DNA of 64,000 nucleotides from an uncultured virus (IMG/VR IMGVR_UViG_3300046557_000419) (lineage: Duplodnaviria; Heunggongvirae; Uroviricota; Caudoviricetes), in the IMG/VR virus record IMGVR_UViG_3300046557_000419, positions 1 to 64,000 of that record; one strand, written 5' to 3'. The position numbers were made by a program, and so were the translations under genes. The notes beneath the pieces were generated by a model. The model did not search any database and was not told where the DNA came from. It was given only the letters and a program-made list of their open reading frames with translations. Each line of letters opens with the position of its first letter. The stretch's first letter is position 1. Below, in pieces: positions 1 to 61,548 of the stretch.

Positions 1-389
1 TGTCGGCTGACACCTCAAAACTTCGAACCGCTAAAAGGGCCTTTTCCCAACGGGGGCAGGGACATGGGGCGAAACCCCTCGGCATCAGGGAGGCGCAGGG
101 GCTGTGTGCGTTAAAACGGGCGGCCCGCGTATCGGGAGCCTGGACTGGCAGGCCGCTCCTGGGGCTTCCCTGGCGTTTGCATTGGGGAGGGCTGTCCGAA
201 GAACGTATACAAATTCGGGACAGGGGTGGCCTCGGAAATCGGGCGGCCCTGTTTTGGGGCCCCATCCCGCGCCGCGCCGCCTAAAAGGCCATTTGCTGGC
301 CGATCCTCAGCTCAGGGTCCGGCCTGATATTCCCGGCGGCGGGTGAGGCTGCGGCTTGATCCTGGCCGATCTGCTGGCCGATCTTCGGA

Positions 390-416
390 GGCCGTGGGTA
401 GCGAGGGCTTCGCCCT
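390..416. repeat. Hairpin repeat copy 1 (AGGGC-TTC-GCCCT)
   Basis: GGCCGTGGGTAGCG flank shared with copy 2; compensatory stem changes. Confidence 0.85.
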
Positions 417-428
417 GGAGAAGAGTCC

Positions 429-626
429 CTAGTGACCGCGTGGCGTCCCGGGGAATGGGACGACGTCGCCGTCCGCCGCCCGGATCACCGCCTTTGCCAT
501 CGGCATCGGGTCGAACCCGAGATCGGCGACCGCGTCGGCCACGCCCTGGCGCTCCAGCTCGGCGACGATCGCCTCGACCACCTTCATCAGCCTGGCCATG
601 TCGGCCGCGCTGTCGCTCATGATCAT
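429..626 (-). CDS. Small hypothetical protein
   Basis: 65-aa ORF with GAGG upstream and plausible helical composition. Confidence 0.6.
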   Translation of the reverse strand: MIMSDSAADMARLMKVVEAIVAELERQGVADAVADLGFDPMPMAKAVIRAADGDVVPFPGTPRGH

Positions 627-663
627 GCCCTCGGTAATACCGAGACCATCGTACCACGGTGGC

Positions 664-687
664 CGTGGGTAGCGAGCGCTCCGCGCT
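664..687. repeat. Hairpin repeat copy 2 (CGTGGGTAGCGAGCGCTCCGCGCT)
   Basis: Exact 24-bp direct repeat of 1112-1135. Confidence 0.95.
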
Positions 688-706
688 GATGATAGTCACA
701 CCGGCC

Positions 707-1120
707 ATGACGCCGAAGCAATGCAAGCACTGCCAGCGAGACTTCTACCGGTCCGGCCGCCCCGAGCAGCGGTTCTGCTCTCACGACTGCCACCGCGCCG
801 ATCGCTACAGGGTCCGCCCGACGAGCCGCCGCTGCGAGTGCTGCCCGACCGTGTTCTCGACCGAGGGCCGGCGGAAGCACAAGCGCTTCTGCTCCCCGAG
901 TTGCGTGGCCACCTGGCGCGAGCGCGAGAAGCGCCTGAACCGTCCTTCCCCGCCGCCGAGAACCGGCCGCCGGAAGCCGGGCCGCCTGGAATGGACGCTC
1001 TCCGGCATGCAGCGAAGCCGGGGGATGGCGCCGAGCCCGCGGCCACTGTCGTCACCGCCGGCCTGGGTCGACCTCCTGACCCGCCTCGGCTATGCCCGGG
1101 TTCGAACCGGGCGTGGGTAG
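707..1120 (+). CDS. Zinc-ribbon repeat protein
   Basis: Two CxxC...FCSxxC units; the stop codon lies inside repeat copy 3. Confidence 0.6.
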   Translation: MTPKQCKHCQRDFYRSGRPEQRFCSHDCHRADRYRVRPTSRRCECCPTVFSTEGRRKHKRFCSPSCVATWREREKRLNRPSPPPRTGRRKPGRLEWTLSGMQRSRGMAPSPRPLSSPPAWVDLLTRLGYARVRTGRG

Positions 1121-1135
1121 CGAGCGCTCCGCGCT
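1112..1135. repeat. Hairpin repeat copy 3
   Basis: Identical to 664-687. Confidence 0.95.
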
Positions 1136-1304
1136 ACTGACCTACACCACGGCTGGCGCGGCGCACGCGGCCGGCCTGATGGAGCTTCAGCTTCCGCACC
1201 AGCTCCTGCAGCTTCTCGGCGTCCTCCGGGCTCATCTTCTTCGGGCCGCGATTGGCTCTGATCGGTCCCTCGAAGGGGATGTAGTCGTCATCGTCGATGG
1301 TCAT
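1134..1304 (-). CDS. Small hypothetical protein (MTIDDDDY...)
   Basis: ATG just after repeat copy 4; the TAG stop overlaps copy 3. Confidence 0.6.
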   Translation of the reverse strand: MTIDDDDYIPFEGPIRANRGPKKMSPEDAEKLQELVRKLKLHQAGRVRRASRGVGQ

Positions 1305-1332
1305 GGCCGGCGAGCGCTCCGCGCTAGAGTCA
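1305..1332. repeat. Hairpin repeat copy 4 (GGCCGGCGAGCGCTCCGCGCTAGAGTCA)
   Basis: 25/28 match to 2901-2928. Confidence 0.9.
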
Positions 1333-1668
1333 GACATTGCCGCCGCAGTGCCGGCACTGGCGATGCTCGACCGGCCGGAATGCGTCCTTGATCGGGTGGT
1401 CGGGGTCCTCGTACAGGCCGCCGCTGATGACGCTGATGTTCGTGTCGAACTCGGGGTGCTCCCAGTCGGGGCGGGCCGTGTGCGCGTAGCGGGCGCCCGG
1501 GAAGATGGGCTCGCCTTTCGGGGCCGGCTGCTCCTTCGAGCACGTCGGCTTCATCACCACGCGGTGACGACGGAGGAACTCTTCGGTCGTGCAGCCGGCG
1601 ACGCCCTCGTTCTTGAGCACGATCGGCACGGCGATGATGCGGCTGGTCTTCGGGTCGAAGGTGGTCAT
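1330..1668 (-). CDS. Hypothetical protein (MTTFDPK..., C-terminal CxxC)
   Basis: Bounded by repeat copies 4 and 5. Confidence 0.6.
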   Translation of the reverse strand: MTTFDPKTSRIIAVPIVLKNEGVAGCTTEEFLRRHRVVMKPTCSKEQPAPKGEPIFPGARYAHTARPDWEHPEFDTNISVISGGLYEDPDHPIKDAFRPVEHRQCRHCGGNV

Positions 1669-1672
1669 GGGC

Positions 1673-1693
1673 AGCGAGCGCTCCGCGCTAGAG
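1673..1693. repeat. Hairpin repeat copy 5
   Basis: AGCGAGCGCTCCGCGCTAGAG. Confidence 0.9.
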
Positions 1694-1785
1694 AAGAACA
1701 CACAGGACCGCGGCCACGATCCAGATCAAGCCGATCGGGTACACTGTCACCCGGATGGTGCGCTGGCCTACGCGCTTGACACTGA

Positions 1786-2058
1786 TCACAGCCGCACCAC
1801 GATCAGGTCGTCGACCGAGAAGCCGTCCGTCCAGCCGTGCCGATTGATGATCTCGTCGTCGCTGGCGATGCCGACGTTGATCTCGTGGCCGCTGCCGTCC
1901 TGGTATTCCCAGACCATGGACACGACGACGTACTCGGCGGGCCACTCCGCGGCATACTGGGCGGCCGGCGATACGGTCACGCGGCTGCCGATACGGATCG
2001 GGGAGACCTCGATCATCTGGCGCATCAGGATTTCGTGGCGGGGCAGGGCGGCGTTCAT
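1786..2058 (-). CDS. Hypothetical protein
   Basis: 90-aa ORF with GGAG RBS in a leftward operon. Confidence 0.65.
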   Translation of the reverse strand: MNAALPRHEILMRQMIEVSPIRIGSRVTVSPAAQYAAEWPAEYVVVSMVWEYQDGSGHEINVGIASDDEIINRHGWTDGFSVDDLIVVRL

Positions 2059-2062
2059 CAGG

Positions 2063-2188
2063 TCACTCTCCGGAGAAATACCAGTCGGCCGCCTTGCGGA
2101 GGAGGCCAGTGTTGTTGGCGATGACGAGGCTGCCGATCAGCGCCAGCGCCACGACGATGCCGGTGAAGGCAGCGGTCCTGATCGACAT
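2063..2188 (-). CDS. Small membrane protein
   Basis: MSIRTAAFTGIVVALALIGSLVIA hydrophobic segment; coupled to the upstream stop. Confidence 0.55.
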   Translation of the reverse strand: MSIRTAAFTGIVVALALIGSLVIANNTGLLRKAADWYFSGE

Positions 2189-2508
2189 CACGGCAGCTCC
2201 GTGGGCCGCTTGGTCAGCAGGCCTTGTCGGATCCGCCACCACAGGCCGGCCCCGCTCTCGCATTCCGAGACTGGCGGCACTGCATCGAGGCCGTGCTTGC
2301 GCTGAAGCAGCTTGCCGGTGTCGTGATCGCCGTCCCGCCAGGTGGCTCCCTGGCTCAGCCGGTGAAGCACGAAGGGCCGCGCCAGCTCGGGAGCATCCCT
2401 CAGGGCCGCCATGAGTCCGAACTGGAACTCGAGAGCGTCGACCAGCTCGCGGCGCAGGTCCGCGATCGAGAGCCGGTTGATGTAGGACTCATCGACGAGG
2501 TCGCTCAC
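2188..2508 (-). CDS. Hypothetical protein
   Basis: 106-aa ORF, translationally coupled. Confidence 0.6.
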   Translation of the reverse strand: MSDLVDESYINRLSIADLRRELVDALEFQFGLMAALRDAPELARPFVLHRLSQGATWRDGDHDTGKLLQRKHGLDAVPPVSECESGAGLWWRIRQGLLTKRPTELP

Positions 2509-2855
2509 ATGTGGTCTCCCAGGTTACGCTTGAACTCGCGCAGGAAGGCGTTCGCCTCGTTGAGATCGGCCGGCAGGTCGGTCGCCCACGACACCGAGAC
2601 TCGAGCGATCGGCGTCGGGATCATGCGGAAGAGCCAGAGGAACTGGCGGCGGCTCTGGAACGGACGGAAGGTCCGGCCACGGATCTTGCGCTGCTCACCG
2701 GGGAGGGGATGTCGCCACTGGCGGCTGCTGAGCTGGGCGCCGAAGCCACCGATCCAGGTGTAGAGCCGGCCGCTCAGCCAGTAGAACCGGTCGTCGAAGT
2801 AGGGCGACGCGAGTCCGTGGCCGTTGCCGAAGATCAAATGGTCGAGGAAAAGCAT
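2505..2855 (-). CDS. Hypothetical protein
   Basis: 116-aa ORF, 4-bp overlap with the next gene. Confidence 0.55.
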   Translation of the reverse strand: MLFLDHLIFGNGHGLASPYFDDRFYWLSGRLYTWIGGFGAQLSSRQWRHPLPGEQRKIRGRTFRPFQSRRQFLWLFRMIPTPIARVSVSWATDLPADLNEANAFLREFKRNLGDHM

Positions 2856-2900
2856 CCGGCTTGACTAGCACGAATGCAAATGCGATGCAAATATTCGCGG

Positions 2901-2928
2901 GGCCGGCGGGCGCTTCGCGCCAGAGTCA
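2901..2928. repeat. Hairpin repeat copy 6 (GGCGC-TTC-GCGCC)
   Basis: Covariant version of copy 4 with the same flanks. Confidence 0.85.
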
Positions 2929-2948
2929 TAACCAAACCGCCCGCAGCG

Positions 2949-3221
2949 TCACCCGTCGCGGAGGTTCATCGCTTTGTAGGCCTTGAGCAGCTGGTCCGGA
3001 GGCGTCTTGGCTTTCAGGGCTTCCCAGGCCATCTTGAAGTCGATCTTCGCCTGGTCGAGGCTGCCGGCCGTGCCGATGGGGAGACCTCCGGTGAGGTGGA
3101 CGATGACGTTCCAGATCCAGATCCCGGGCGTGCGCTCGCTGGCGTATCTGATCCGGCCGACCAGCTGCTTGTCGTCGAGCACGGAATAGTCGCGGCGTCC
3201 GATTGGTCGCAGGCTGAGCAC
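2949..3221 (-). CDS. Hypothetical protein of a type seen in Rhizobiales
   Basis: VGRIR...WxWNV...G.AGSLDQAK.DFKxAW pattern. Confidence 0.7.
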   Translation of the reverse strand: MLSLRPIGRRDYSVLDDKQLVGRIRYASERTPGIWIWNVIVHLTGGLPIGTAGSLDQAKIDFKMAWEALKAKTPPDQLLKAYKAMNLRDG

Positions 3222-3244
3222 GAAATCGGCCTCGTGAGGGGGGG

Positions 3245-3370
3245 TGTCAACCAGGATGACAGGGGGGGGGGTGTAATCCTGGTTGACAGGGGTGTCATCC
3301 GAGTTGACAGGGGTGTCATCCGAGTTGACACCTTAAACCACCACTATAACCACCACTTGAACCACCAACT
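3245..3370. repeat. Four 17-bp iteron-like palindromes plus three AACCACCA repeats; candidate replication origin
   Basis: TGTCA-N7-TGACA units at 3245, 3272 (one mismatch), 3293 and 3314. Confidence 0.75.
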
Positions 3371-3528
3371 CTTAGACTCTCGTCCCTTTTCGGGCCGAGG
3401 CGCTGGCTTTTGGCTTCGGCCGCAGGTTCCGGTCAGGAACTCCAGCCGGCAAGTTTCCACAGTTCGGGCGGAAAGGTGCCCAGGTGTTGAAACCGGGAAC
3501 CCGTTTGCATTTTTGCAGGGAACAACCA

Positions 3529-3593
3529 GAGAGGGGTTGACAGAACGGGGGTACCTACTGTAGGACTTGCTGTAGCGTTAGCATTCGTGCAAA
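3529..3593 (+). promoter_or_regulatory. Putative rightward promoter flanked by TTGCA operators
   Basis: GAGAGGGGTTGACAGAAnGGGGGTACCT is repeated at 22617-22644. Confidence 0.6.
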
Positions 3594-3761
3594 CGTAACC
3601 AAGCCCCCAGGATGCGGCCCGGACAATCAGCCGGGACATTGGGCGGTGCCCGGACCCACTAACCCCATGCTGCGACCCCCGCCTCAGGCGGCGGCGCCCG
3701 GCCAGGCGATAGGAGTTCGGCGTGTCCAGGGGCTTGCTTGAATGCAAACGGAGGAACGCGC

Positions 3762-3887
3762 GTGAGCCATGAGCTGATCCAGTATCTCGCCTATGTGGCC
3801 GCGATCGTCCTGACCCCTGCAGTCGGCTTTGCCGTCCTCGGCCTGTTCTGGTGCGTCCGATCCCTAAAGGAGATCGTCTGGCCATGA
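3762..3887 (+). CDS. Small membrane protein
   Basis: GTG start after GGAGG; hydrophobic 41 aa; ATGA overlap with the next gene. Confidence 0.55.
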   Translation: MSHELIQYLAYVAAIVLTPAVGFAVLGLFWCVRSLKEIVWP

Positions 3888-4018
3888 CTGCTGACATCGA
3901 ATTTCTCGCCGTGCTCAGCAGAGCCATCCTCGCATTGATGATCCTGAGCGGCGGCGCCATCGCAACGATCCTGGTCGTGATCCTCATCCTGAAGCTCTTT
4001 GGGTGCCTCGATGACTGA
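3884..4018 (+). CDS. Small membrane protein
   Basis: AAGGAG RBS; hydrophobic 44 aa. Confidence 0.6.
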   Translation: MTADIEFLAVLSRAILALMILSGGAIATILVVILILKLFGCLDD

Positions 4019-4295
4019 CCGCGCAGACGAAATCATCGCTGCCGCCGAGCAGGCGCTGCGTGAGCGACGCGGGCGCTCCGCGCCAGAGACAAACCAAACA
4101 GCTCCCGACTGGGGCCCGCTGTACCGCTACCTGCAAGGTGTGGTGCTCGGCTGCGTCGCCGGCCTGATCATCGGCTACATCTGCGGCGCCTTCATCGGAC
4201 CGGGTCGTGACACCTGCAAGGTGCGCGCCTCCACGGCTCACATGGCGGTCTGTCTCGATGACTCGATCGCAAAAGCCAAGGGGCTGATGCGGTGA
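4011..4295 (+). CDS. Membrane protein
   Basis: TM segment GVVLGCVAGLIIGYICGAFI; contains hairpin repeat copy 7. Confidence 0.6.
   Translation: MTDRADEIIAAAEQALRERRGRSAPETNQTAPDWGPLYRYLQGVVLGCVAGLIIGYICGAFIGPGRDTCKVRASTAHMAVCLDDSIAKAKGLMR
4069..4088. repeat. Hairpin repeat copy 7 (GCG GGCGC-TCC-GCGCC AGAG)
   Basis: Matches the consensus flanks and stem. Confidence 0.6.
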
Positions 4296-4630
4296 GCGAG
4301 AACCCTGGGAAGTGGCGAGACATCGAACAGCACGCTGACAGCATGACGCTCTTCGGCCGCGACTTCACGCTGCTGGTCGACGGCAAGCCGCTCGACAGCA
4401 TCCCGACGAAGCTCTTCGTCAACGAGATCGACGTCGTGACCGGCGCGATCACTGAGGTCACCTACACGACCCAGCTCGCGATCGACGAGCCGATCGAGCC
4501 GCTCAGCGAGACAGAGCAGAAGCTCTGCGATTGGTGGGCCAAGCGGATCGAGGAAGATCTGCTCCGCCAGCTCTGCGGCGCGTCCAGTGAATACGAACAA
4601 AGCCTGCGTGCGGCAGGAGCCAAAGTTTAA
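4292..4630 (+). CDS. Hypothetical protein
   Basis: 112-aa coupled ORF. Confidence 0.65.
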   Translation: MSENPGKWRDIEQHADSMTLFGRDFTLLVDGKPLDSIPTKLFVNEIDVVTGAITEVTYTTQLAIDEPIEPLSETEQKLCDWWAKRIEEDLLRQLCGASSEYEQSLRAAGAKV

Positions 4631-4682
4631 CCAGAGCCCGTGGTCTGCCCCAGGCAGCACGGCTCACCCTTTCGAGGCCGGA

Positions 4683-4994
4683 ATGTCCAAGATCGTGCCC
4701 GACCAGCTCGTTGACCTCGCGCTCGAACATCTCGACGACGAAGTCAAGCGCTGGCGGCGCGTGCCTTGGGCTCCGGGATACATCCGCCTGATGCGGTGCC
4801 CCGACATGCCGGGCCCGGCAGAGATCACCGCTCAAGCGATGGAACAGGAGATCGTCTGCCACGACGTGCCGGCCGCTCTCGCCGACGACATGATCGTCCG
4901 CTTCGCGATGGAGAAGGCCATTGAGGCCGTCATCGGTGCCATCTCGCTCGCAGTGCCGGCGCCGAAGCCGCGCAAGCGAAAGGCCAAGTCGTGA
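4683..4994 (+). CDS. Hypothetical protein
   Basis: ORF with GAGG RBS. Confidence 0.6.
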   Translation: MSKIVPDQLVDLALEHLDDEVKRWRRVPWAPGYIRLMRCPDMPGPAEITAQAMEQEIVCHDVPAALADDMIVRFAMEKAIEAVIGAISLAVPAPKPRKRKAKS

Positions 4995-5236
4995 TCGAGT
5001 TCATCGGGCTCGCCTGCTTCTCGCTCGGCGTCGCCACGCTCTACGCCACATGGCGGCTGTGGCTCGACGAGCCTCGCCAGATCCGTTTCACGGACAAGCT
5101 GGCAGAGGCTCTGGAAATGCCACGCTACGTCCAGCGGGCGCAGATGTACTGCCGGCTCTACGGCTATCCCGAGAGCGAGTGGGAACGGTTTCAACACCGC
5201 GCCATCGCCGACATCATCATGGAGGCGTACCGCTAA
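4991..5236 (+). CDS. Membrane-anchored hypothetical protein
   Basis: N-terminal TM segment; coupled. Confidence 0.6.
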   Translation: MIEFIGLACFSLGVATLYATWRLWLDEPRQIRFTDKLAEALEMPRYVQRAQMYCRLYGYPESEWERFQHRAIADIIMEAYR

Positions 5237-5941: not shown

Positions 5942-6017
5942 GCTGGGGTAGCTCAGATGGTAGAGCGCCGGATTTCCAATCCGTTGGTCGTGGGTTCGAA
6001 CCCCACCCCTCGCTCCA
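5942..6017 (+). tRNA. tRNA-Gly(TCC)
   Basis: Cloverleaf with loop TTTCCAA, GGTTCGAA T-loop, U73 and CCA. Confidence 0.9.
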
Positions 6018-6029
6018 AAGGAACCGAAC

Positions 6030-16876: not shown

Positions 16877-17434
16877 ATGACCGATTTACCGCCGCGTCGC
16901 CGAGGACGGCCGACGAATGAGGAGAAGGCTGCCCGCGAGGCTGCAGTCAAGGCGAAGTCCGAAAAGGACGCTCAGGAAACTGAGTTCCTGGACGATGTTC
17001 TCGCCCAACCAATCAAGCGCCGCGCCCCGCAGGCGAGGATCCAGCCGGACGACGAAACGCTCCGCACCATCGGTGAGCTTGGCAAGTTGTTCTGTACCCA
17101 AGAGGAGGTTGCCGCGGTGCTCGGCGTGTCCCGGCGGACATTCCAGACGTTCATCTCGGAGTGCCAAGAGGCTCGTGACGTTTGGGATGACGGCCTGATG
17201 CACGCCAAGGTCTCGCTGCGCCGCAAGCAGCTCGCGCTCGCCGACAAGAACGCGCCGGCCGCGATCTTCCTCGGCAAGAACTACCTCGGCCAGAAGGACG
17301 AGAGCACCACCAACATGAACATCTCCAAGCCCGTCGCGGAAATGAGCGAAGCGGAGCTGATGGAAATCGCCATGCGAAAGTCTGGCTCGGCGCCGCCGTC
17401 CAAGCCTGAGACCAAGACGGAGCGCGTCCACTGA
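16877..17434 (+). CDS. Terminase small subunit
   Basis: HTH (EEVAAVLGVSRRTF) and AAIFLGKNYLGQKD motif. Confidence 0.75.
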   Translation: MTDLPPRRRGRPTNEEKAAREAAVKAKSEKDAQETEFLDDVLAQPIKRRAPQARIQPDDETLRTIGELGKLFCTQEEVAAVLGVSRRTFQTFISECQEARDVWDDGLMHAKVSLRRKQLALADKNAPAAIFLGKNYLGQKDESTTNMNISKPVAEMSEAELMEIAMRKSGSAPPSKPETKTERVH

Positions 17435-46936: not shown

Positions 46937-48928
46937 ATGACTTTTCAACCGCTCGCCACCGAAGAACGCGCTCGCAGAAAGCAGGTCATCGAAGATCTGC
47001 TGAAGCAGGGCTATCATCCGCAGGGCTCGCGTGGAGGCATTGCCTCCGCGACCAAGACTGCGGAGCGCGTCGAAGGCCTGAACTATCCGAACTGGGTCCG
47101 CGCCGAAGAGGCGCTGAAGCGCAAGCGCAAAGAGAACTTCGCGATCGACTGGTCGCTGTACGTTCCGCCTGTCCCGCAGGCTACCGTCACCTCAGGTGGC
47201 GAAGAACTGTCCGCCGAAGAAGTCGACCCATTGATCCGGGCGAAGACGCTCTCGGCCGAGGTTACCCAACTCATCACCCGATCGAAATACCCCGTCATCA
47301 ACCCGGAAGCCGTCATCGTCGACACGCCGATGCTGCGACGCTGGTCCACGAAGCATCGTCGCTACGAGGAGACCGAAGGCAAGCCGCGGACCTGGATGGT
47401 CGACACCCTGAAGGTCGAGGCCATTAAGGACTCGCGGAATCGGAACTTCATCTTCACGGGCGCGCAGAACGATGCGCTCCTGCACGAGGAGTTCTGGGTC
47501 AATCTCCAGGCCTATGCCGCCTATATCGACGCCGAGATCATCGTCGGCCCCTGGACCTACGAGACCCAGTGGTGGTCCGAGAACGACCCGCAGGCGCGCG
47601 AGTATGCCCCTGAGCTGGCTGAGCACCTGTGCTTCGGCCAGATGAAGATCGGCACCAACTTCATGTTCTGCGGCGAGATGAACACGCTGCCGACCGCGTC
47701 GCAGCCGATCTCGGACCTGGTGACCTACAGCCGGGGCCGCTGGGCCGTGTTCCCGCACGCCAAGCGCCAGCTGAAGTCCGTCCCCTCGACCGATCCCAAC
47801 ATCCAGGCCCACCAGGTCATGACGTCGGGCGCCTGCACGCGGCCGAAGATCATCCCCCGCAAGGCGGGCGTGAAGTCGATCTTCCATCAGATCATCGGCG
47901 CCACCGTGGTGCAGTTCGACGAGGATGGCGACATCTTCTGTCGGCAGATCACGGCCAACGACGACGACGGCTCGTTCTACGACCTCGACGCCTATGTGGC
48001 GAACGCTGAGGTCACGACCGGTCACCGCGTCAAGGCGATCACCATGCCGGACCTCCACGTCCGCAAGATGGACCAGACCAACTGCATGGCCATCTTCGGG
48101 TGGGATATGCGGGGCGGCCGGGCGCAGTACCGCAACAGCATCATGGATGTCCTCGATCCCGAGAACGTCATCGGTCACGACATCTTCGACAACGAAGCGC
48201 GGAACCACCATCACGTCCACGACAACGCCTACAGCTACGAGATGGCCATCCGTGGCCGCGACAGCGTGGAGGAGGAAGTCGACCAGTGCGGCCGATTCCT
48301 GCTGACGGCTGTCGGTCTGAGCGACCTTCTGCCGATGGTCACGGTCGGCGACCGCACCTTCATCGTTGCTGAGGGCAACCACGATATCGCGCTTGAGAAG
48401 TACGCCCGAGAAGGCCGGTACCGGAACGACGGCCGGAACGTCCGCTTCGGTCTGCAGCTCGAAGACGCATACCTGGATCACGTCGAGCGTCGCTCATTCG
48501 CGATCGACAACGAGCTGCCGGTGCCGCGTTTCTCGCTGCTGGAGCACGCCATCCGGATGAAATATCCGCAGCTCGGCAACAAGGTGGTCTGGTGCCATGA
48601 CGGCTACAGCCACCTGCTCGACGGCATCGAGGTCGGCAACCACGGCTTCCGCGGCGCGAACGGCGCCAAGGGAACGGTGGCGGGCTTCGCGCGGGCAGGG
48701 CGCAAGATGTCGATCGGCGACAAGCACAGCCCCGAGATCATGGAGGGTGTGTACGTGGCCGGCGTCATCAACCTGCGCCACGGCTACAACAAGGGCCTGT
48801 CGGGTTGGGCGGTCACCGTGATCATCCAGTATCCGGACGGGAAGCGCTCGCTGTTGACCCTGCAGAAGGGCAAGTGGCGTCCGGGACGGCGGGTCATCCG
48901 CGTGCCGGCCCCGTCTTTGGCTGCCTGA
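46937..48928 (+). CDS. Metallophosphoesterase, T5 A1-like
   Basis: FTGAQN; DLH, GHDIFD, GNHD, HG and GDKHSP calcineurin-type motifs. Confidence 0.7.
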   Translation: MTFQPLATEERARRKQVIEDLLKQGYHPQGSRGGIASATKTAERVEGLNYPNWVRAEEALKRKRKENFAIDWSLYVPPVPQATVTSGGEELSAEEVDPLIRAKTLSAEVTQLITRSKYPVINPEAVIVDTPMLRRWSTKHRRYEETEGKPRTWMVDTLKVEAIKDSRNRNFIFTGAQNDALLHEEFWVNLQAYAAYIDAEIIVGPWTYETQWWSENDPQAREYAPELAEHLCFGQMKIGTNFMFCGEMNTLPTASQPISDLVTYSRGRWAVFPHAKRQLKSVPSTDPNIQAHQVMTSGACTRPKIIPRKAGVKSIFHQIIGATVVQFDEDGDIFCRQITANDDDGSFYDLDAYVANAEVTTGHRVKAITMPDLHVRKMDQTNCMAIFGWDMRGGRAQYRNSIMDVLDPENVIGHDIFDNEARNHHHVHDNAYSYEMAIRGRDSVEEEVDQCGRFLLTAVGLSDLLPMVTVGDRTFIVAEGNHDIALEKYAREGRYRNDGRNVRFGLQLEDAYLDHVERRSFAIDNELPVPRFSLLEHAIRMKYPQLGNKVVWCHDGYSHLLDGIEVGNHGFRGANGAKGTVAGFARAGRKMSIGDKHSPEIMEGVYVAGVINLRHGYNKGLSGWAVTVIIQYPDGKRSLLTLQKGKWRPGRRVIRVPAPSLAA

Positions 48929-48958
48929 TCGCTTGCACGAATGCAAAGGGGGAGTTCC

Positions 48959-49420
48959 ATGCTCGTCTATCTCGCCGGTCCGATTTCGGGCCTGAACTTC
49001 GACGGCGCAACCAACTGGCGCGAATACGCGAAGGCGGAACTCGGCCAGTTCAGCATCAAGGCGCTCTCGCCCCTGCGCGAGCAGGAGCACATGCGCGAGA
49101 TCGGGGTCTTCACCGACGCCTCGAAAGAGACGGCCAGGCTGAAGTCTCCGATGTCGACCCCGAAGGGGCTCACGATCCGTGACCGTTGGGACGCGCGGCG
49201 CTGCAACGTCCTGCTGGTGAACCTGCTTGGCGCCACGAAGGTCTCGGTCGGCACGGTGATGGAGGTCGCCTGGGCTGACGGCGAGGGCATCCCGATCGTC
49301 TGCGCGATCGAGCCGGAGGGAAACATCCACGAGCACGCCATGCTGATGCACTGCATCGGCTACCGCGTCCCGACGCTCTGGGACGCCTGCGACATCACCC
49401 GGCAGCTGCTGGCTGTCTGA
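48959..49420 (+). CDS. Nucleoside 2-deoxyribosyltransferase-like protein
   Basis: VYLAGPI; D..D...C..LLVNL; SVGTVMEVAWA. Confidence 0.85.
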   Translation: MLVYLAGPISGLNFDGATNWREYAKAELGQFSIKALSPLREQEHMREIGVFTDASKETARLKSPMSTPKGLTIRDRWDARRCNVLLVNLLGATKVSVGTVMEVAWADGEGIPIVCAIEPEGNIHEHAMLMHCIGYRVPTLWDACDITRQLLAV

Positions 49421-51998: not shown

Positions 51999-52633
51999 CA
52001 CGCCTCCGCTGTCGTGTGGTTGCGCTCGACGCTGCGGGGCACGTACTTCCAACTCGGGAAGGCGTGATTGATCGAGTTGCCTTCGAGGTTGTAGCGGGAC
52101 TCGGAAATCGAGATCTTCACGAAGGTGCGGACACCCGGCGTCTGCTCGGCGACGCGATGGATGACAGCCTCGTCCAGGCGCAGCAGGTGCTTGTCGGGGT
52201 AGGTCACGATCGGCCCGCTGGATGCGACTTCCATCTCAGCCAGGGAAGCGTGATGGTGCTGCGTGAACTCGATCAGATCAGCCGGCTGCCAGAACTCGGT
52301 GCCGTTGCGGTCAGACCAGACGTAGTTGAGGTCTTCGGTCATGAAGCCATCAGAGTGCCAGCCCGGGCGATTGCCGGGGCTCTCCTTGCAGACCCACAGC
52401 GTCTTGGCCGTGACGTAGACGTAGCTGTCCAGCCACAGCGAGACGTTGCCAGCAATGTTCTGCAGGTCGCGGAACACAGCCTCGACAATCGGCTGAAACT
52501 GCCGGAGGTTGCTCGGGATCCTCTCTCCGTACTGTCCCGGCTCCTTGATCGGGCAGTACATCCAGAACATCATCTCCTTCGGAGACAGGTCGACGAGTCC
52601 GAGATCGACGGGTGGGGTGCCGTAAAGCGTCAT
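51998..52633 (-). CDS. 2OG-Fe(II) dioxygenase-like protein
   Basis: RPGWHSD...IHRV...RTFVKI. Confidence 0.6.
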   Translation of the reverse strand: MTLYGTPPVDLGLVDLSPKEMMFWMYCPIKEPGQYGERIPSNLRQFQPIVEAVFRDLQNIAGNVSLWLDSYVYVTAKTLWVCKESPGNRPGWHSDGFMTEDLNYVWSDRNGTEFWQPADLIEFTQHHHASLAEMEVASSGPIVTYPDKHLLRLDEAVIHRVAEQTPGVRTFVKISISESRYNLEGNSINHAFPSWKYVPRSVERNHTTAEA

Positions 52634-56829: not shown

Positions 56830-57069
56830 TCGGCATTTGCATTAAAGCAAATAGAGAGGAAAAGCAAGAAGTAGGAGGGGAGCCCACTCCGTTCCATTTT
56901 GAACGGTTGTTCAGGCGCCAACCCTGCGCGGAATAGAAGGTTTTGCTATCTGGTTAATCCAATTGCCGTATTTCTACGGAACCGAAATCAGGCTTGCATT
57001 TTGATGCAAATAGCGTTAGCTCACGGTCAAGAGGCGCCTGGCGGCAGGCTGCAGGGAATGAGAACAATA

Positions 57070-57378
57070 ATGAACACGTCCTTCGAGTATCGGTCCTATC
57101 AAGTCAGCCACGACGGCGTCGCTTTCACCGCCGAACCCCAGGACGGGGAACCCTTCCAGCTCAGATCGAAGAACATGCTTCGCGTCACTCGGGCGATCGA
57201 TACCCTTTGGAATGCCCTCGAAGGAACCGTTGCCGCCCCGGCCTGGCTGTTTGAAGAGACCAGTTCCGTCGATCTCGATGCGGCCTCGGAGGCTATGCTG
57301 ATCGTTGACCGTCCGAAGTCGGTGACCTACTTCCCTTTAGGGCCCATGGCTGGGATGCCCGCCCGCGCCGCAGCCTGA
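57070..57378 (+). CDS. Hypothetical protein (paralog of the next gene's N-terminus)
   Basis: YR.Y.V...F.A...AID.LW..LE...PAW...DLD. Confidence 0.7.
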   Translation: MNTSFEYRSYQVSHDGVAFTAEPQDGEPFQLRSKNMLRVTRAIDTLWNALEGTVAAPAWLFEETSSVDLDAASEAMLIVDRPKSVTYFPLGPMAGMPARAAA

Positions 57379-57383
57379 GGCTC

Positions 57384-57995
57384 GTGATGACGACGATCTA
57401 CCGGAACTACGTTGTCGCTCGTGTGGGCGACAAGTTTGTTGCTAAGTCGCCGGATGATGAATGCCTGCTGGTGTCATCACAGCAGCAACGCCTTCACGCA
57501 GCGATCGACGACCTCTGGGATTCTTTGGAGAAGGGGGGCGAGCCTGCGTGGTTCTCCGGCAGCTCTGCCATCGATCTCGACACATTCGGGCCGGAAGCGG
57601 TGCCGTCGAGTTCTGACCCCCCTGAGTCGACGCCGAGGCCGGTTCTGAGGATCAGCTACGTCGCCTTCGTCGCCACGGCGGTAGCTGTGTCTGCGCCGGT
57701 CTCTTATTTCATGGAGACGATGTGCTGGCCGATGCGGGTCGACGTCCTGTTGACCCTCGGGGTTTGTGCGGTCGCGGTGGCCTTCGGTAGGCGCTACGCA
57801 CTGATCGCGGCCGGGATCGCAGCAGTCGTATTCAACTTTTGCGCCGTGGAGCCTCTATTGGCGTTCACGGTTCCTACGACGAGTGAGATTGTCCTGATGG
57901 CGTTCAATCTCATCGCCGCTCTCGGCATTCCCGAGTTGCTCAAGCTGCGATGTCTTCAGGCCGCACAAGGGAAAGGCCGAACTCGGCGCATCTGA
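57384..57995 (+). CDS. Paralog domain fused to a DUF4118 (KdpD-type) membrane domain
   Basis: 4 TM segments; AVAFGRRYAL.A...FNF..VEP...F. Confidence 0.7.
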   Translation: MMTTIYRNYVVARVGDKFVAKSPDDECLLVSSQQQRLHAAIDDLWDSLEKGGEPAWFSGSSAIDLDTFGPEAVPSSSDPPESTPRPVLRISYVAFVATAVAVSAPVSYFMETMCWPMRVDVLLTLGVCAVAVAFGRRYALIAAGIAAVVFNFCAVEPLLAFTVPTTSEIVLMAFNLIAALGIPELLKLRCLQAAQGKGRTRRI

Positions 57996-58593
57996 TCATC
58001 ATGTCTTGTGTCCCTGTCCCGCCAGGACACGCGACAGCAAGCTGCGGGCGACCTTCGCGCAGCATTTGTTCATTTCGTACGTGGCCGGCAAGCACATCGT
58101 AGAGCTTGCCATATTTGTTCTTTTTCACCACGGCGCCCGGCCGATCGATGTTATCCCAGTCGGCCGGGTAGGGATCAAACGCGACACCACGATCCTCAGC
58201 CCATTTGCGAGCCAGCCTGTCAGCTCCAGACGCCTCCCCCTCAACGATGCATGTGATCCGCCTACGCGCATCGAGCGCGTCCAGACCGCGATACAGCGTA
58301 TCTCTGTCGGCGTAGTTGCGGCCACCGAACACGACCACGCGGAAGTTCGCCTTCAGCAGGATCGAGTCACCGTGGCAGCGGTGCGGCGCGCAGTAGCACT
58401 TCAGGTTACTGCCGGTCAGCGCCGAGACATCCATGTCCGGCAGCTGCTCGCAGTCGAACATATTGCAGACCTGGTCGCGGTCGCCGTGCGCCCCGATGAC
58501 GAACCGGTTGCCATAGGGCGAGCCGCGGCCGATGTAGACCGCGTCTGCTGGGGCGTCCTGGTGGTGGACGTTGTAGACTCGAGGCGCCGGCAT
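57940..58593 (-). CDS. DUF4326 + SLOG (DUF2493-like) fusion
   Basis: YIGRGS.YGN.F...C.CAP..CHGD; GGR.Y...GAD..A...RN..M...PGG.GT. Confidence 0.8.
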   Translation of the reverse strand: MPAPRVYNVHHQDAPADAVYIGRGSPYGNRFVIGAHGDRDQVCNMFDCEQLPDMDVSALTGSNLKCYCAPHRCHGDSILLKANFRVVVFGGRNYADRDTLYRGLDALDARRRITCIVEGEASGADRLARKWAEDRGVAFDPYPADWDNIDRPGAVVKKNKYGKLYDVLAGHVRNEQMLREGRPQLAVACPGGTGTQDMMIRCAEFGLSLVRPEDIAA

Positions 58594-58946
58594 CAGTTCA
58601 TACCCTTTGGTCCGATCCCGATCGCGGTCAGCCTTGCCTTGAGCTGCTCATCGGTCTCGCCATCCTGCCGCTCCGTGAGGTAGCACTTCGCGGCATAGTT
58701 CAGCTTCTCGTCACGCAACGGTTCGAGCTGCCCCTGAATAGTCTCGGGCTTGATCTGTTGCAAAAGCTGCTCCGCCGGGATGGTGCGGGTCAGGCTTGCC
58801 ATGCCTGGATTGGTGCAGACTGCCTTCAGTTGGCCTGGACCTTCGACGGAGGTGATCTTGAAGTACACCCCGTGAGCAAACCCCACCCCGTTGAACTGGG
58901 TCATCGCAATGCCGGCAATCCGGCCGATCAGATCATCATCGTTCAT
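58593..58946 (-). CDS. Hypothetical protein
   Basis: Coupled ORF. Confidence 0.55.
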   Translation of the reverse strand: MNDDDLIGRIAGIAMTQFNGVGFAHGVYFKITSVEGPGQLKAVCTNPGMASLTRTIPAEQLLQQIKPETIQGQLEPLRDEKLNYAAKCYLTERQDGETDEQLKARLTAIGIGPKGMN

Positions 58947-60047: not shown

Positions 60048-60298
60048 CGGAACGCCTTGCATGCGTCGCCGCTCCGGAAGGTGCCGGAGGGGCAGGCCGT
60101 GCCGGGGATGTACGGGTATGCGCGCGGGGTGTCCTTGTGGAGCGCCTCGCACTTGTCGCCGAGTCCGACGTAACCCGTGGGGCACGTTCCAGTGCGCTGG
60201 ATGCGCTCCCTGCCATCTGGAGTCGGTGTGGGATATTTGGTCTCGGCGAGCGCAGGGGCTGCCAGGGTAAGCAAGACGAGGGCGATGATCTTCTTCAT
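60044..60298 (-). CDS. Small secreted Cys-rich protein
   Basis: Signal peptide; G.CP.G....GD.C occurs twice. Confidence 0.7.
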   Translation of the reverse strand: MKKIIALVLLTLAAPALAETKYPTPTPDGRERIQRTGTCPTGYVGLGDKCEALHKDTPRAYPYIPGTACPSGTFRSGDACKAFR

Positions 60299-61548
60299 GG
60301 CTGATCTCCAATGATCTTTTTCAGTTCCTGACTGAGCAGTATTGAAACCGCCCGCTTCTCGGGCAGCATGTCGTATTTGTCGTAGACGGCGGTGACGTCG
60401 CCATCGATGTGGTCGAGCATTGCCTTGACGTCCGGTCGCGGGGCGCCGCAGCGCCGGGCAAGAGTGGCCGCGGTGCGCCGGAGGTCGTGCGGGGTGAAGT
60501 GTTCCATCTTGAGGAATGACCGAATGCCGACCCGGTTCGAGCGCTCCTTGTCGTTCAAAGCCTGAGACAAAGAGCTGCGCTTGATCTCGACCTTCTCCCC
60601 GTACTTGGATGGGAAAAGACAGACCTGCTTCTCGTCCTTGATGGCGGCCTTGATGACCTCCGTTGCCAGCGGCGAGACAGGCACGATCACCTCGCGCCGG
60701 CCCTTCACCCTGATAGGAGGCATCTGGTACTGGGCATGCTCCGTGCCGAGCCCGCTGATCTCCGACAGGAGGGCGCCGGCCGCCTGGTATGGTCGGACCA
60801 TGGTGGCCAGAACCATCTTCAGCGCGAGCGCCACCTGGCGATCACAGGGCACGTCCGGATGCTCCAGACCCCACCAGAGCGTCCTAATCTCGTCGTCGGA
60901 TAGGACCCTGTTCCGAGCCTTCTCCGATCCGCCGCGGCGCTCCATGCCGGTGATCGGATTGGAGGGCACGTATTTCCGGCCGGGCTGCCTGGCCCATTCG
61001 AACATCTTGTGGATAACCGACTGCGTCCGGTTGGCGCTGATCGGGGCATCCTCGGCGATCTCGTCGAGGACATCGGCAATGTCGTCGTCCGTCACCGTGT
61101 GCGCTGGCATGTGCCCCAGGGCGACCTTGGGGCGTTTCAGGTAGCCCTCGTCGTTCTTCCAGGAGGACTTGTTCGGCTTTGCGTACTCCTCCATGTAGGC
61201 GTCGCAGAGAGCTTCGAACGAGAGATCCTCTGCACGGGCCGCAGCACGCCGCTCGCGCCGCTGTTCGGATCGGGGGTCCTTGTCGTCGCCGATCTTCTTG
61301 CGCTGCTCGGCGGCCTTCTCTCGGGCCAAGGCGAGGGAAATGTCCGGATACCGACCGAGCGATATCCGGACCGCCCGCGAGAGCAGGGGCGACCAATAGG
61401 TGAGCGCGAAGGACTTGGCGCCGGACTTGAACACCCGGACCTTGAGCCCGGGGCAGGCATCGTCCGCGACGTCGATCTGCTCTTTTTCTTGGGGGCATTT
61501 GAGCCCTGTGATATGCTTGTCAGTGAGCCTTGGCACCCTAGTCTCCAA
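60295..61548 (-). CDS. int: Tyrosine integrase with arm-binding domain
   Basis: CPGL.VRV..SG.KSF; catalytic R, HDLRRT, LDH and Y. Confidence 0.95.
   Translation of the reverse strand: METRVPRLTDKHITGLKCPQEKEQIDVADDACPGLKVRVFKSGAKSFALTYWSPLLSRAVRISLGRYPDISLALAREKAAEQRKKIGDDKDPRSEQRRERRAAARAEDLSFEALCDAYMEEYAKPNKSSWKNDEGYLKRPKVALGHMPAHTVTDDDIADVLDEIAEDAPISANRTQSVIHKMFEWARQPGRKYVPSNPITGMERRGGSEKARNRVLSDDEIRTLWWGLEHPDVPCDRQVALALKMVLATMVRPYQAAGALLSEISGLGTEHAQYQMPPIRVKGRREVIVPVSPLATEVIKAAIKDEKQVCLFPSKYGEKVEIKRSSLSQALNDKERSNRVGIRSFLKMEHFTPHDLRRTAATLARRCGAPRPDVKAMLDHIDGDVTAVYDKYDMLPEKRAVSILLSQELKKIIGDQP

Follow-up and report, generated by a model that had tools for sequence, protein, structure and literature searches.

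We analyzed the first 64,000 nucleotides (nt) of IMG/VR virus record IMGVR_UViG_3300046557_000419, which we will call the window, and found that it contains seven copies of a short element, predicted to form a hairpin, at the borders of small genes (and, in one case, within a coding sequence). (The full record has 72,276 bases and was judged to be about 60% complete.) Our best guess, which we hold tentatively, is that the element is a mini-hairpin that acts at the DNA level, that it forms the universal junction of an array of ORFan cassettes, and that these cassettes are exchanged by recombination at the hairpin. The array lies in the hypervariable early region of temperate myophages that resemble Bradyrhizobium phage BDU-MI-1. 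The element is present in at least nine phage genomes and in many soil metagenome contigs. An earlier note, made from the letters of the window alone, had reported the seven copies and had proposed a gene-cassette or single-stranded DNA signal system.

To count the copies, we used the pattern GCGRGSGCTYCGCSCY (GCG-RGSGC-TYC-GCSCY), with up to one mismatch allowed. The window has seven matches, all of them exact and all on the plus strand (Table 1). Shuffled sequence gave 0.35 matches on average and at most two, and none of 100 shuffles reached seven. Across the full record there are seven forward matches, no reverse matches, and no matches to a reversed-pattern control. This confirms the seven co-oriented copies, which span 401-4084, exceed the background frequency, and have no counterpart later in the record. 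With a covariance model built from 54 copies (described below), the window again gave these seven, and the final 8 kb of the record gave no match (E ≤ 1). If we instead accept any perfect hairpin with a 5-bp stem and a 3-nt loop that is closed by C-GRA-G, there are eight on the minus strand, namely the seven copies and an unrelated hairpin at 52585, and none on the plus strand.

The hairpins are best read on the minus strand. As the earlier note had it, the stems in the window are AGCGC/GCGCT (four copies), GGCGC/GCGCC (two), or AGGGC/GCCCT (one), and the loops are GGA (five) or GAA (two). The AGAG tail of its consensus holds for four of the seven copies at their 3' side; GGAG takes its place in another copy, and still other letters do so in copies 2 and 3. 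Upstream, CGTGGGTAGCG is common to copies 1-3. The common form on the minus strand is (stop)-CTCT-RGSGC-GNA-GCSCY-CGC-YRSCC-ATG. In copies 4 and 5, the ATG is exactly 8 nt past the stem; copies 1-3 have ACG at that place. Copies 1-5 separate single small open reading frames (ORFs), as previously described. At copies 3, 4, and 5, a stop codon overlaps the element or directly adjoins it.

The window is part of a temperate myophage of about 120 kb that is related to BDU-MI-1. Its recognizable genes (Pfam and PHROGs) include terminase, portal, scaffold, a P2-type tail (sheath, tube, GpU, and X), integrase, and a class II ribonucleotide reductase. BDU-MI-1 (KY940711, or W01 in our numbering; 121 kb, circular) is the nearest named relative; its match has 73% identity and covers 35% of the first 8 kb. 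From 1666 rightwards, the window has 99.2% identity to another relative, the 119-kb IMG/VR contig G001; over 1-245 the identity is 93%, and in between the two are mosaic. We also examined four IMG/VR records of 108-128 kb (G002-G005; three are proviruses and one has terminal repeats), as well as three further contigs that were found via neighboring proteins. (L069 and L072, mentioned below, are also relatives.) Each of the eight relatives has 3-7 copies, which are confined to the same small region, next to a divergent control region. (G001 and BDU-MI-1 have seven each, co-oriented and in one stretch of 3.7 and 5.6 kb, respectively, out of about 120 kb; G002-G005 have 5-7 each.) The metagenomes with DNA of this region are from rhizosphere and root.

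We then asked how the element varies. We aligned 54 copies from 11 loci in nine genomes, which were collected with a filter for GC-rich hairpins with a 5-bp stem, a 3-nt loop, and at least four pairs. (Three copies without the CGC flank were added from a list of one-mismatch matches; the other 51 have CGC after the stem.) Alignment columns G16, C17, G18, A20, G21, C24, and C26 are invariant, and C22 is present in at least 90% of the rows. The loops are GGA (28 copies), GAA (22), or GTA (4), and GCA is also found in metagenome copies. Thirty-one stems are AGCGC/GCGCT, nine are GGCGC/GCGCC, eight are AGGGC/GCCCT, and six are imperfect. In this alignment, the invariant heart of the element corresponds exactly to the mini-hairpin d(GC-GNA-GC). 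As a DNA molecule, the GCGNAGC mini-hairpin is described as exceptionally stable (melting temperature 76.5 °C), nuclease-resistant, and poorly bound by single-stranded DNA-binding protein (SSB) (PMC13037366).

In this alignment, 98.8% of 260 cells are paired, versus 10-60% in slid controls. Compensatory changes are found in two of the five pairs (AU to GC in seven rows and CG to GC in nine), and none of 500 shuffles reached the observed covariation score. In the relatives, the outer stem is altered only by compensatory pairs and the G and A of the loop are kept, with a variable base in the middle. When run over 457 kb, the covariance model returned the 54 seed copies and eight weaker matches, and none outside the cluster in three full genomes (E < 0.1).

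A fairer test comes from the degenerate pattern itself, as it does not require complementarity. Its 34 zero-mismatch matches in the phages all have complementary bases at the two variable pairs. In five alphaproteobacterial genomes, 7 of 26 matches are complementary, but five of these are 16-mers that had been used to choose the genomes, which leaves 2 of 21. This comparison supports the suggestion of the earlier note that the hairpin structure is selected. As a control, and not as a source of new covariation, we scanned metagenomes with the three outer pairs left free. This gave 103 distinct contexts, but in most of them the outer stem is unpaired and the match looks like chance. We kept about 22, with stems AGCGC/GCGCT (18), AGGGC/GCCCT (1), or AGCGC/GCGTT (3, with a G.T pair). 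In the genome collection, the 16-mer matched at least 120 stretches, and the 80 that were listed are single matches, mostly in unrelated GC-rich bacteria. We considered these matches as a clue to the host and rejected them, as they look like chance.

Comparison of the relatives supports a variation of gene content in units bounded by hairpins. Besides the mosaic relationship to G001, a metagenome contig of 1,301 letters matches 1110-1763 of the window with one difference and then reaches the left flank via 287 other letters that replace 885. The break is at copy 3. (Short joints, with 18-34 letters on one side, might reflect multiple mapping of the motif and were set aside, so we relied on long pieces only.) In an all-against-all comparison of ten cluster regions, 36 of 278 ends of homology blocks lie within 25 nt of a hairpin center, versus 11.6 ± 4.2 for random positions (0 of 1000 reach 36). 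Fourteen of the 23 blocks that run downstream from a hairpin begin at the first stem base, and 18 begin within 4 nt of it. Among the 21 blocks that arrive from upstream, 12 pass through the hairpin and end 20-31 nt beyond the first stem base.

Individual cassettes give a similar picture. The window block 386-687 (copy 1, gene C, and copy 2) is found again in G005, and block 436-1135 is found again in G003. Homologs of gene C lie between hairpins in G005, G003, L072, and G002, and cassette C occurs in five genomes with different neighbors. Gene B has a counterpart in BDU-MI-1 (72% identity) that likewise comes after a hairpin, and one in G001 (42% identity in amino acids) at another position. 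Gene A is 75% identical to a G001 gene (85% at the DNA level), but its upstream neighbor differs, and copy 5 is the left edge of the block of 99.2% identity that the window has in common with G001. These boundaries show that neighboring cassettes differ in their histories and are joined at the hairpin.

Which molecule folds? The flanking genes may be sense, antisense, convergent, or divergent with respect to the hairpin, and the copies within an array keep one orientation. In the window and in G001, BDU-MI-1, G002, G003, and G005, most neighbors are sense to the strand with the GNA loop, but these co-oriented copies flank genes on the opposite strand as well. All neighbors in G004 and L069 are antisense to the GNA strand. 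Among 35 metagenome copies, sense and antisense neighbors are about equally common, and nine of ten multi-copy loci are co-oriented. (We also considered a rule based on replication direction. The hairpin strand is opposite to the coding strand of terminase in G001, BDU-MI-1, G002, G003, and one group in G004, but the second G004 group is inverted, so we rejected the rule. G004 is the one relative whose two hairpin clusters face opposite ways.)

Copy 7 lies within a coding sequence, where it encodes G-R-S-A-P. The hairpin is at the same place, and antisense, in the homologous proteins of the window, BDU-MI-1, L072, and G003. Across these homologs, the 13 nt of the hairpin differ in the middle base of the loop only (which changes Ser to Phe), while the flanking residues diverge. 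G004 has a similar hairpin in a different reading frame. Because the orientation is independent of the genes and copy 7 is kept antisense in coding sequence, a DNA-level element is favored, without being proven.

If the element does act at the DNA level, then the hairpin would be extruded from supercoiled DNA or would fold in transient single strands, and would not act in mRNA. Co-infecting or resident phages could then swap cassettes by recombination within the 16-35 bp that structural constraint would keep identical. The phage's YqaJ-type exonuclease and RuvC-like resolvase are candidate helpers of this exchange. The flanks of the element would provide a stop codon plus a start codon or a Shine-Dalgarno-like AGAG, in both directions, so that any cassette joined there would be correctly terminated and initiated.

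Several observations weigh against this proposal. The 98.8% pairing is partly circular, as the 54 copies were collected with hairpin-based filters, and the unbiased counts are those from the degenerate pattern (34 of 34 versus 2 of 21). There are three perfect stem types only, so there may have been as few as two independent compensatory events. The predicted folding energy of the DNA is no better than that of shuffles (z about 0), and therefore the case for structure rests on covariation and conservation. Ends of homology blocks at a universal motif are partly forced by the alignment, and they do not give the location of the crossover inside the motif. Wobble variants keep their pairing on the GNA strand in six copies but on the other strand in two, a split that does not single out one strand as the one that folds. 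No strand-specific function is needed to account for the co-orientation of the copies, which could have arisen by descent through homologous exchange. Finally, 14 of the 54 copies have an ATG 8 nt past the stem, and four of the six G004 copies have, on the other strand, the arrangement hairpin-N3-4-GGAGAGAG-ATG; both would fit a role in RNA or as a promoter equally well.

These start codons are part of the case for a hairpin that works in RNA. It would be an intercistronic hairpin in a polycistronic early mRNA that couples or tunes translation (replacing the Shine-Dalgarno sequence) or that marks the mRNA for protection or processing, and recombination would be a by-product of its conservation. 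We consider this a real but rather unlikely alternative. An ATG at exactly +9 after the stem would be expected in about one of the 54 copies, and the junction TGA-CTCT-hairpin-8 nt-ATG at copies 4 and 5 contains no other ribosome site. Many copies are overlapped or abutted by stop codons, the GNA strand is the sense strand for most window-type copies, and the G004 hairpins are 3-4 nt ahead of GGAGAGAG-ATG in the mRNA sense. But the hairpin has no constant orientation relative to its flanking genes, and in G004 and L069 the orientation is the full reverse, so one RNA sequence cannot be the signal. A role in RNA would also have to contend with copy 7, which is conserved antisense within coding sequence, and with two G004 copies that pair on the template DNA strand (T.G) and would have A.C in the mRNA. 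A purely structural role in RNA does not explain the invariant G and A at the ends of the loop or the CGC flank, and 12 of the 54 copies have ACG instead of ATG. The earlier note's suggestion that the hairpin occludes ribosome-binding sites fares poorly as well: 26 of the 54 loops are GAA or GTA and lack GGAG, and the hairpin strand is antisense to all of the flanking genes in two relatives. (We also considered CsrA-type GGA loops, lambda/P22 boxB, and RegB GGAG sites, and rejected them, given the variable orientation and the 26 of 54 loops with a sequence other than GGA.) If the element is instead read as double-stranded DNA, then a dimeric phage regulator might bind the 13-bp palindrome as an operator at gene borders and silence or time the early cassettes, which we think is quite improbable. 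A palindrome with a 3-bp spacer that is repeated at gene borders and is restricted to a region next to the control region would suit an operator. There is a similar case in Cluster O mycobacteriophages, whose 7-bp inverted repeat with a 3-bp spacer is described as occurring 34 times, mostly between genes (PMC4351075). However, the arms of the Cluster O repeats are described as invariant, and they are found genome-wide and have no meaningful orientation (PMC4351075), whereas the element has covarying arms, an asymmetric loop with invariant ends (G and A), and a one-sided CGC, and is limited to one region of 4-6 kb. Furthermore, one phage can have three stem variants, each symmetrically altered, and reading by half-sites would not select for that. 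Least probable of all, in our view, is a selfish mini-element similar to repetitive extragenic palindromes (REPs) or to miniature inverted-repeat transposable elements, which would insert at gene borders and be moved by a host or phage transposase. The copies are intergenic and co-oriented, and in 23 of the 54 copies the other strand has GTAG, which is the head of REPs, at 2 nt from the stem. But three full phage genomes have all of their copies within the cluster of 4-6 kb. The five alphaproteobacterial genomes have 3-8 scattered matches each, versus 2-6 for the reversed-pattern control, and most of these matches are not complementary. No Y1 (HUH) transposase was named by Pfam scans of the 152 proteins of G001 and the window, and we saw no empty site or target duplication.

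The remaining alternative is a single-stranded signal of the kind used by phage N4, in which one strand extrudes the GNA hairpin and a polymerase reads it, whether as a promoter or as a primase start site (similar to single-strand initiation, or ssi, sites) near a replication control region. We think this is unlikely. Promoters for the N4 virion RNA polymerase are described as hairpins on the template strand with a 5-7 bp stem, a 3-nt loop with G at its 5' end and A at its 3' end, and a C:G closing pair; the enzyme recognizes A or G at -11, G at -10, G at -8, and C at +1 (PMC4496689). The same source describes the extrusion of these hairpins as driven by gyrase at physiological supercoiling, with SSB sparing the hairpin on the template strand (PMC4496689). 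All 54 copies have these features of the stem, loop, closing pair, and loop ends. The center of the loop (-11) is a purine in 50 copies and T in four, and the G at -8, two bases before the loop, is invariant (our G16). In other words, G16, C17, G18, N19, A20, and G21 match the determinants of the N4 hairpin, without variation except for the four GTA loops. The 5-bp stem, the 3-nt loop, and clustering in the early region are also alike. The GNA strand serves as template in G004 and L069, with the hairpin 12-16 nt before gene starts, and copy 7 has the same geometry in all of the genomes we examined. These are the only copies with that geometry, though. The hairpin strand of copies 1 and 3-6 in the window is the coding strand of their neighbors, and in seven of nine genomes the GNA strand is the coding strand for most copies, so the transcripts would be antisense. 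In addition, the window has T or A at 5 nt from the stem, the C at +1 is not conserved, and these are temperate myophages, unlike the N4-like podophages. Pfam and PHROGs scans of the phage proteins named no virion or T7-like RNA polymerase, although a very divergent enzyme could escape them (a 686-amino-acid DUF8224 protein and a 766-amino-acid protein have no explanation). A search for PF00940 matched none of five genomes (E ≤ 1), which is a weak negative, as control genomes also gave no match. Because no polymerase was found and most copies are reversed, the elements do not qualify as N4 promoters; that they work like N4 promoters is a minority possibility. The resemblance pointed out in the earlier note is real as far as the hairpin determinants go. 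As for priming, the complementary-strand origins of G4, St-1, and alpha3 and the ssiA site of RSF1010 are described as having a GCGNAGC-type core on one strand near initiator iterons, with one or two sites per replicon within larger structures (PMC13037366). The phage encodes a Toprim+DnaB primase-helicase and SSB, and it has initiator-type iterons between copies 6 and 7. In contrast to the G4 and ssiA sites, the phages have 3-8 copies at the borders of accessory genes. We know of no precedent for seven priming sites at such borders. Priming signals near an origin, as the earlier note proposed, are possible. More broadly, an unrecognized protein might read a strand-specific, extrudable d(GC-GNA-GC) site, either as a cassette recombinase or nuclease (with the site as a 13-nt counterpart of attC) or as a polymerase or primase that begins synthesis at N4-like hairpins. 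We give this a low probability, but if it is true, then this would be a new hairpin-reading system that is widespread in rhizosphere viromes. (The conserved neighbor genes A1 and A2 were considered as hairpin readers and rejected: neither has a known function, and the two are not related. The gene we had called A1 in G004 turned out to be an HNH-like endonuclease and not a homolog of A1.)

Returning to our preferred reading of a cassette junction, we compared the element with systems that organize cassettes or disperse short repeats. In T4-type phages RB49 and phi1, PeSLs (promoter-early stem-loops) are described as combining a strong sigma-70-like promoter with a terminator stem-loop (Arbiol et al. 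2010, PMC2839356). Like our element, PeSLs are short conserved repeats among small non-essential ORFans in a hyperplastic region, and they are described as bounding the indels and replacements between relatives (PMC2839356). The element also flanks ORFans and bounds the differences between relatives. On the other hand, a scan for sigma-70-like consensus sites found no promoter-like sites in 1-5000 of the window (alphaproteobacterial promoters may differ from this consensus), the 5-bp stem lacks a T run, none of four terminator-like sites coincides with a copy, and the core is a GNA mini-hairpin. Integron attC sites are imperfect palindromes of 57-141 bp with paired core sites and extrahelical bases, and they are recombined by IntI at attI. 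Our element resembles them in that both are proposed to fold in single strands, to bound promoterless cassettes, and to lie all in one orientation. It differs in being a perfect 13-nt hairpin plus CGC (13-16 nt), with cassettes in either orientation. We found no IntI or attI: the phage has a single tyrosine recombinase, an ordinary phage integrase that contains an Arm-binding domain (60295-61548 in the window) and is encoded about 56 kb from the array. As for REPs and their associated transposases (RAYTs), the Pfam scans named no Y1 transposase, as mentioned above; we did not see REP-like dispersal in the five alphaproteobacterial genomes, none of which is a Bradyrhizobium; and the copies in phages are confined to the cluster. 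The earlier suggestion of an integron- or REP-like array thus fails as a matter of membership. Overall, the element is a variant of the repeats of phage hyperplastic regions. It is closest in behavior to PeSLs, but by its defining features it is not a PeSL, an integron, or a member of a REP family. Like the Cluster O repeats, the element may also be compared with Cluster K start-associated sequences and Cluster A stoperators, as all of these are short repeated motifs at or near the starts of phage genes, with unknown or regulatory function.

A narrow literature search found no description of the element, which does not prove that it is unpublished. Phage genomes are mosaic, yet sequences that mark the seams are rarely seen, and this hairpin is a clear case: a structured 16-nt motif at the seams of an ORFan array, beside the lysis-lysogeny control region. 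Genes for anti-defense and host takeover are usually found beside this control region. The motif is a simple handle with which to find and delimit such cassettes in metagenomes. BDU-MI-1 growing on B. diazoefficiens USDA110 is a defined test system for uses of N4-type DNA mini-hairpins beyond N4, whether in recombination, priming, or transcription.

Table 1. The hairpin copies, the genes around them, and the control region. Coordinates are in the window unless another genome is named.
Feature	Coordinates	Strand	Description
Copy 1	401..416 (hairpin 404-416)	-	AGGGC-GAA-GCCCT then CGCTACCCACG; last before conserved left flank
Gene C	429..626	-	65 amino acids; no family match
Copy 2	672..687 (hairpin 675-687)	-	AGCGC-GGA-GCGCT then CGCTACCCACG
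Candidate ORF Z	706..1120	+	138 amino acids; Cys-rich; opposite strand to neighbors; its TAG is that of GGGTAGCG
Copy 3	1120..1135 (hairpin 1123-1135)	-	5' stem base overlapped by TAG stop of gene B
Gene B	1134..1304	-	56 amino acids
Copy 4	1310..1325 (hairpin 1313-1325)	-	TGA-CTCT-hairpin-CGCCGGCC-ATG, gene A to gene B
Gene A	1330..1668	-	112 amino acids
Copy 5	1674..1689 (hairpin 1677-1689)	-	then CGCTGCCC-ATG, the start of gene A
Four small genes, copies 5 to 6	1786-2058, 2063-2188, 2188-2508, 2505-2855	-	97-100% identical in G001
Copy 6	2906..2921 (hairpin 2909-2921)	-	GGCGC-GAA-GCGCC
Divergent control region	3245..3367		central; between copies 6 and 7
Copy 7	4069..4084 (hairpin 4072-4084)	-	GGCGC-GGA-GCGCC; antisense within + strand ORF 4011-4295
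TGT(C/A)A-N7-TGACA sites	3245-3330; G001 48870-48997; BDU-MI-1 17065-17171 and 100201		

The genes between the hairpins were assigned to strands from codon statistics and from the pattern of substitutions at third positions. Pfam and PHROGs gave no match for any of the cassette proteins. Copy 2 precedes both gene C (by 48 nt, on the minus strand) and ORF Z (by 19 nt), and the TAG of ORF Z is 2 nt from the other side of copy 3. ORF Z encodes two C-x2-C ... F-C-S-x2-C blocks, without a family match, and its GC content at third codon positions is 0.88. Its substitutions relative to G003 are spread over the three codon positions (34/22/21) and are not concentrated at the third. The coding status of ORF Z is doubtful, and it may be a decaying gene. 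The gene upstream of copy 4 stops 4 nt ahead of the hairpin. The first stem bases of copy 5 coincide in part with a TAG, the stop of a small ORF (1688-1789) with weak support. Copy 6 lies between the gene at 2949-3221 and the leader of the gene at 2505-2855, which has TTTGCAT motifs.

The control region has four TGTCA-N7-TGACA sites (3245-3330) and three direct repeats of AACCACCA (3336-3367, with 12-bp spacing). Sites of the form TGT(C/A)A-N7-TGACA are found at just two places in each genome, namely in the control region (four times, but once in BDU-MI-1) and in the gene for an O-like replication initiator (three times). Possibly, the control region serves as a second origin, or the initiator regulates transcription from there. 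A similar AACCAAAC follows both copy 6 and copy 7. The 72-kb record has 24 instances of TTTGCAT, and G001 has 44, where about six would be expected (a rough estimate from base composition). Those in the window include 176, 2874, 2885, 3504, and 3742. Many instances are just upstream of genes, such as the two between copy 6 and the gene at 2505-2855, and TTTGCAT is thus a candidate for a promoter or regulator motif in this family of phages.

Some copies have other features nearby. A second hairpin, CCCGG-TTCGAAC-CCGGG, which is similar to the T-arm of a tRNA, is at 1083-1111, 11 nt past copy 3 on the minus strand. With some changes, it is also beside the homologous copies in G003 and in metagenome locus L220. 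GANTC, the site of CcrM-type methylases, is within 12 nt of the stem in 10 of the 54 copies, including three of the seven in the window (in 5' flanks, such as 417-428, 1326-1332, and 2922-2928). The phage with GANTC sites near its hairpins encodes an MT-A70 methylase.

As for replication and recombination, the phage encodes, besides the primase-helicase, SSB, O-like initiator, YqaJ exonuclease, resolvase, methylase, and integrase already mentioned, a UvrD protein, a DnaQ-like exonuclease, and a NUMOD4 protein. We recognized no DNA polymerase among its genes. The 686-amino-acid protein is in the replication module (G001 56865-58928, or L012:16865-18925, minus strand); it contains DUF8224, belongs to phrog_1735, and has no solved relative. 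In G004, an HNH/endonuclease VII-like gene (75254-76021, or L063:9254-10021, minus strand) is at the inner edge of one hairpin cluster. An Rfam scan gave no match at the hairpins; its sole match (5942-6000, 45 bits) belongs to a tRNA gene at 5942-6018 in the window, after the early rightward genes. The equivalent region of BDU-MI-1 has a tRNA-Met and a pseudo-tRNA.

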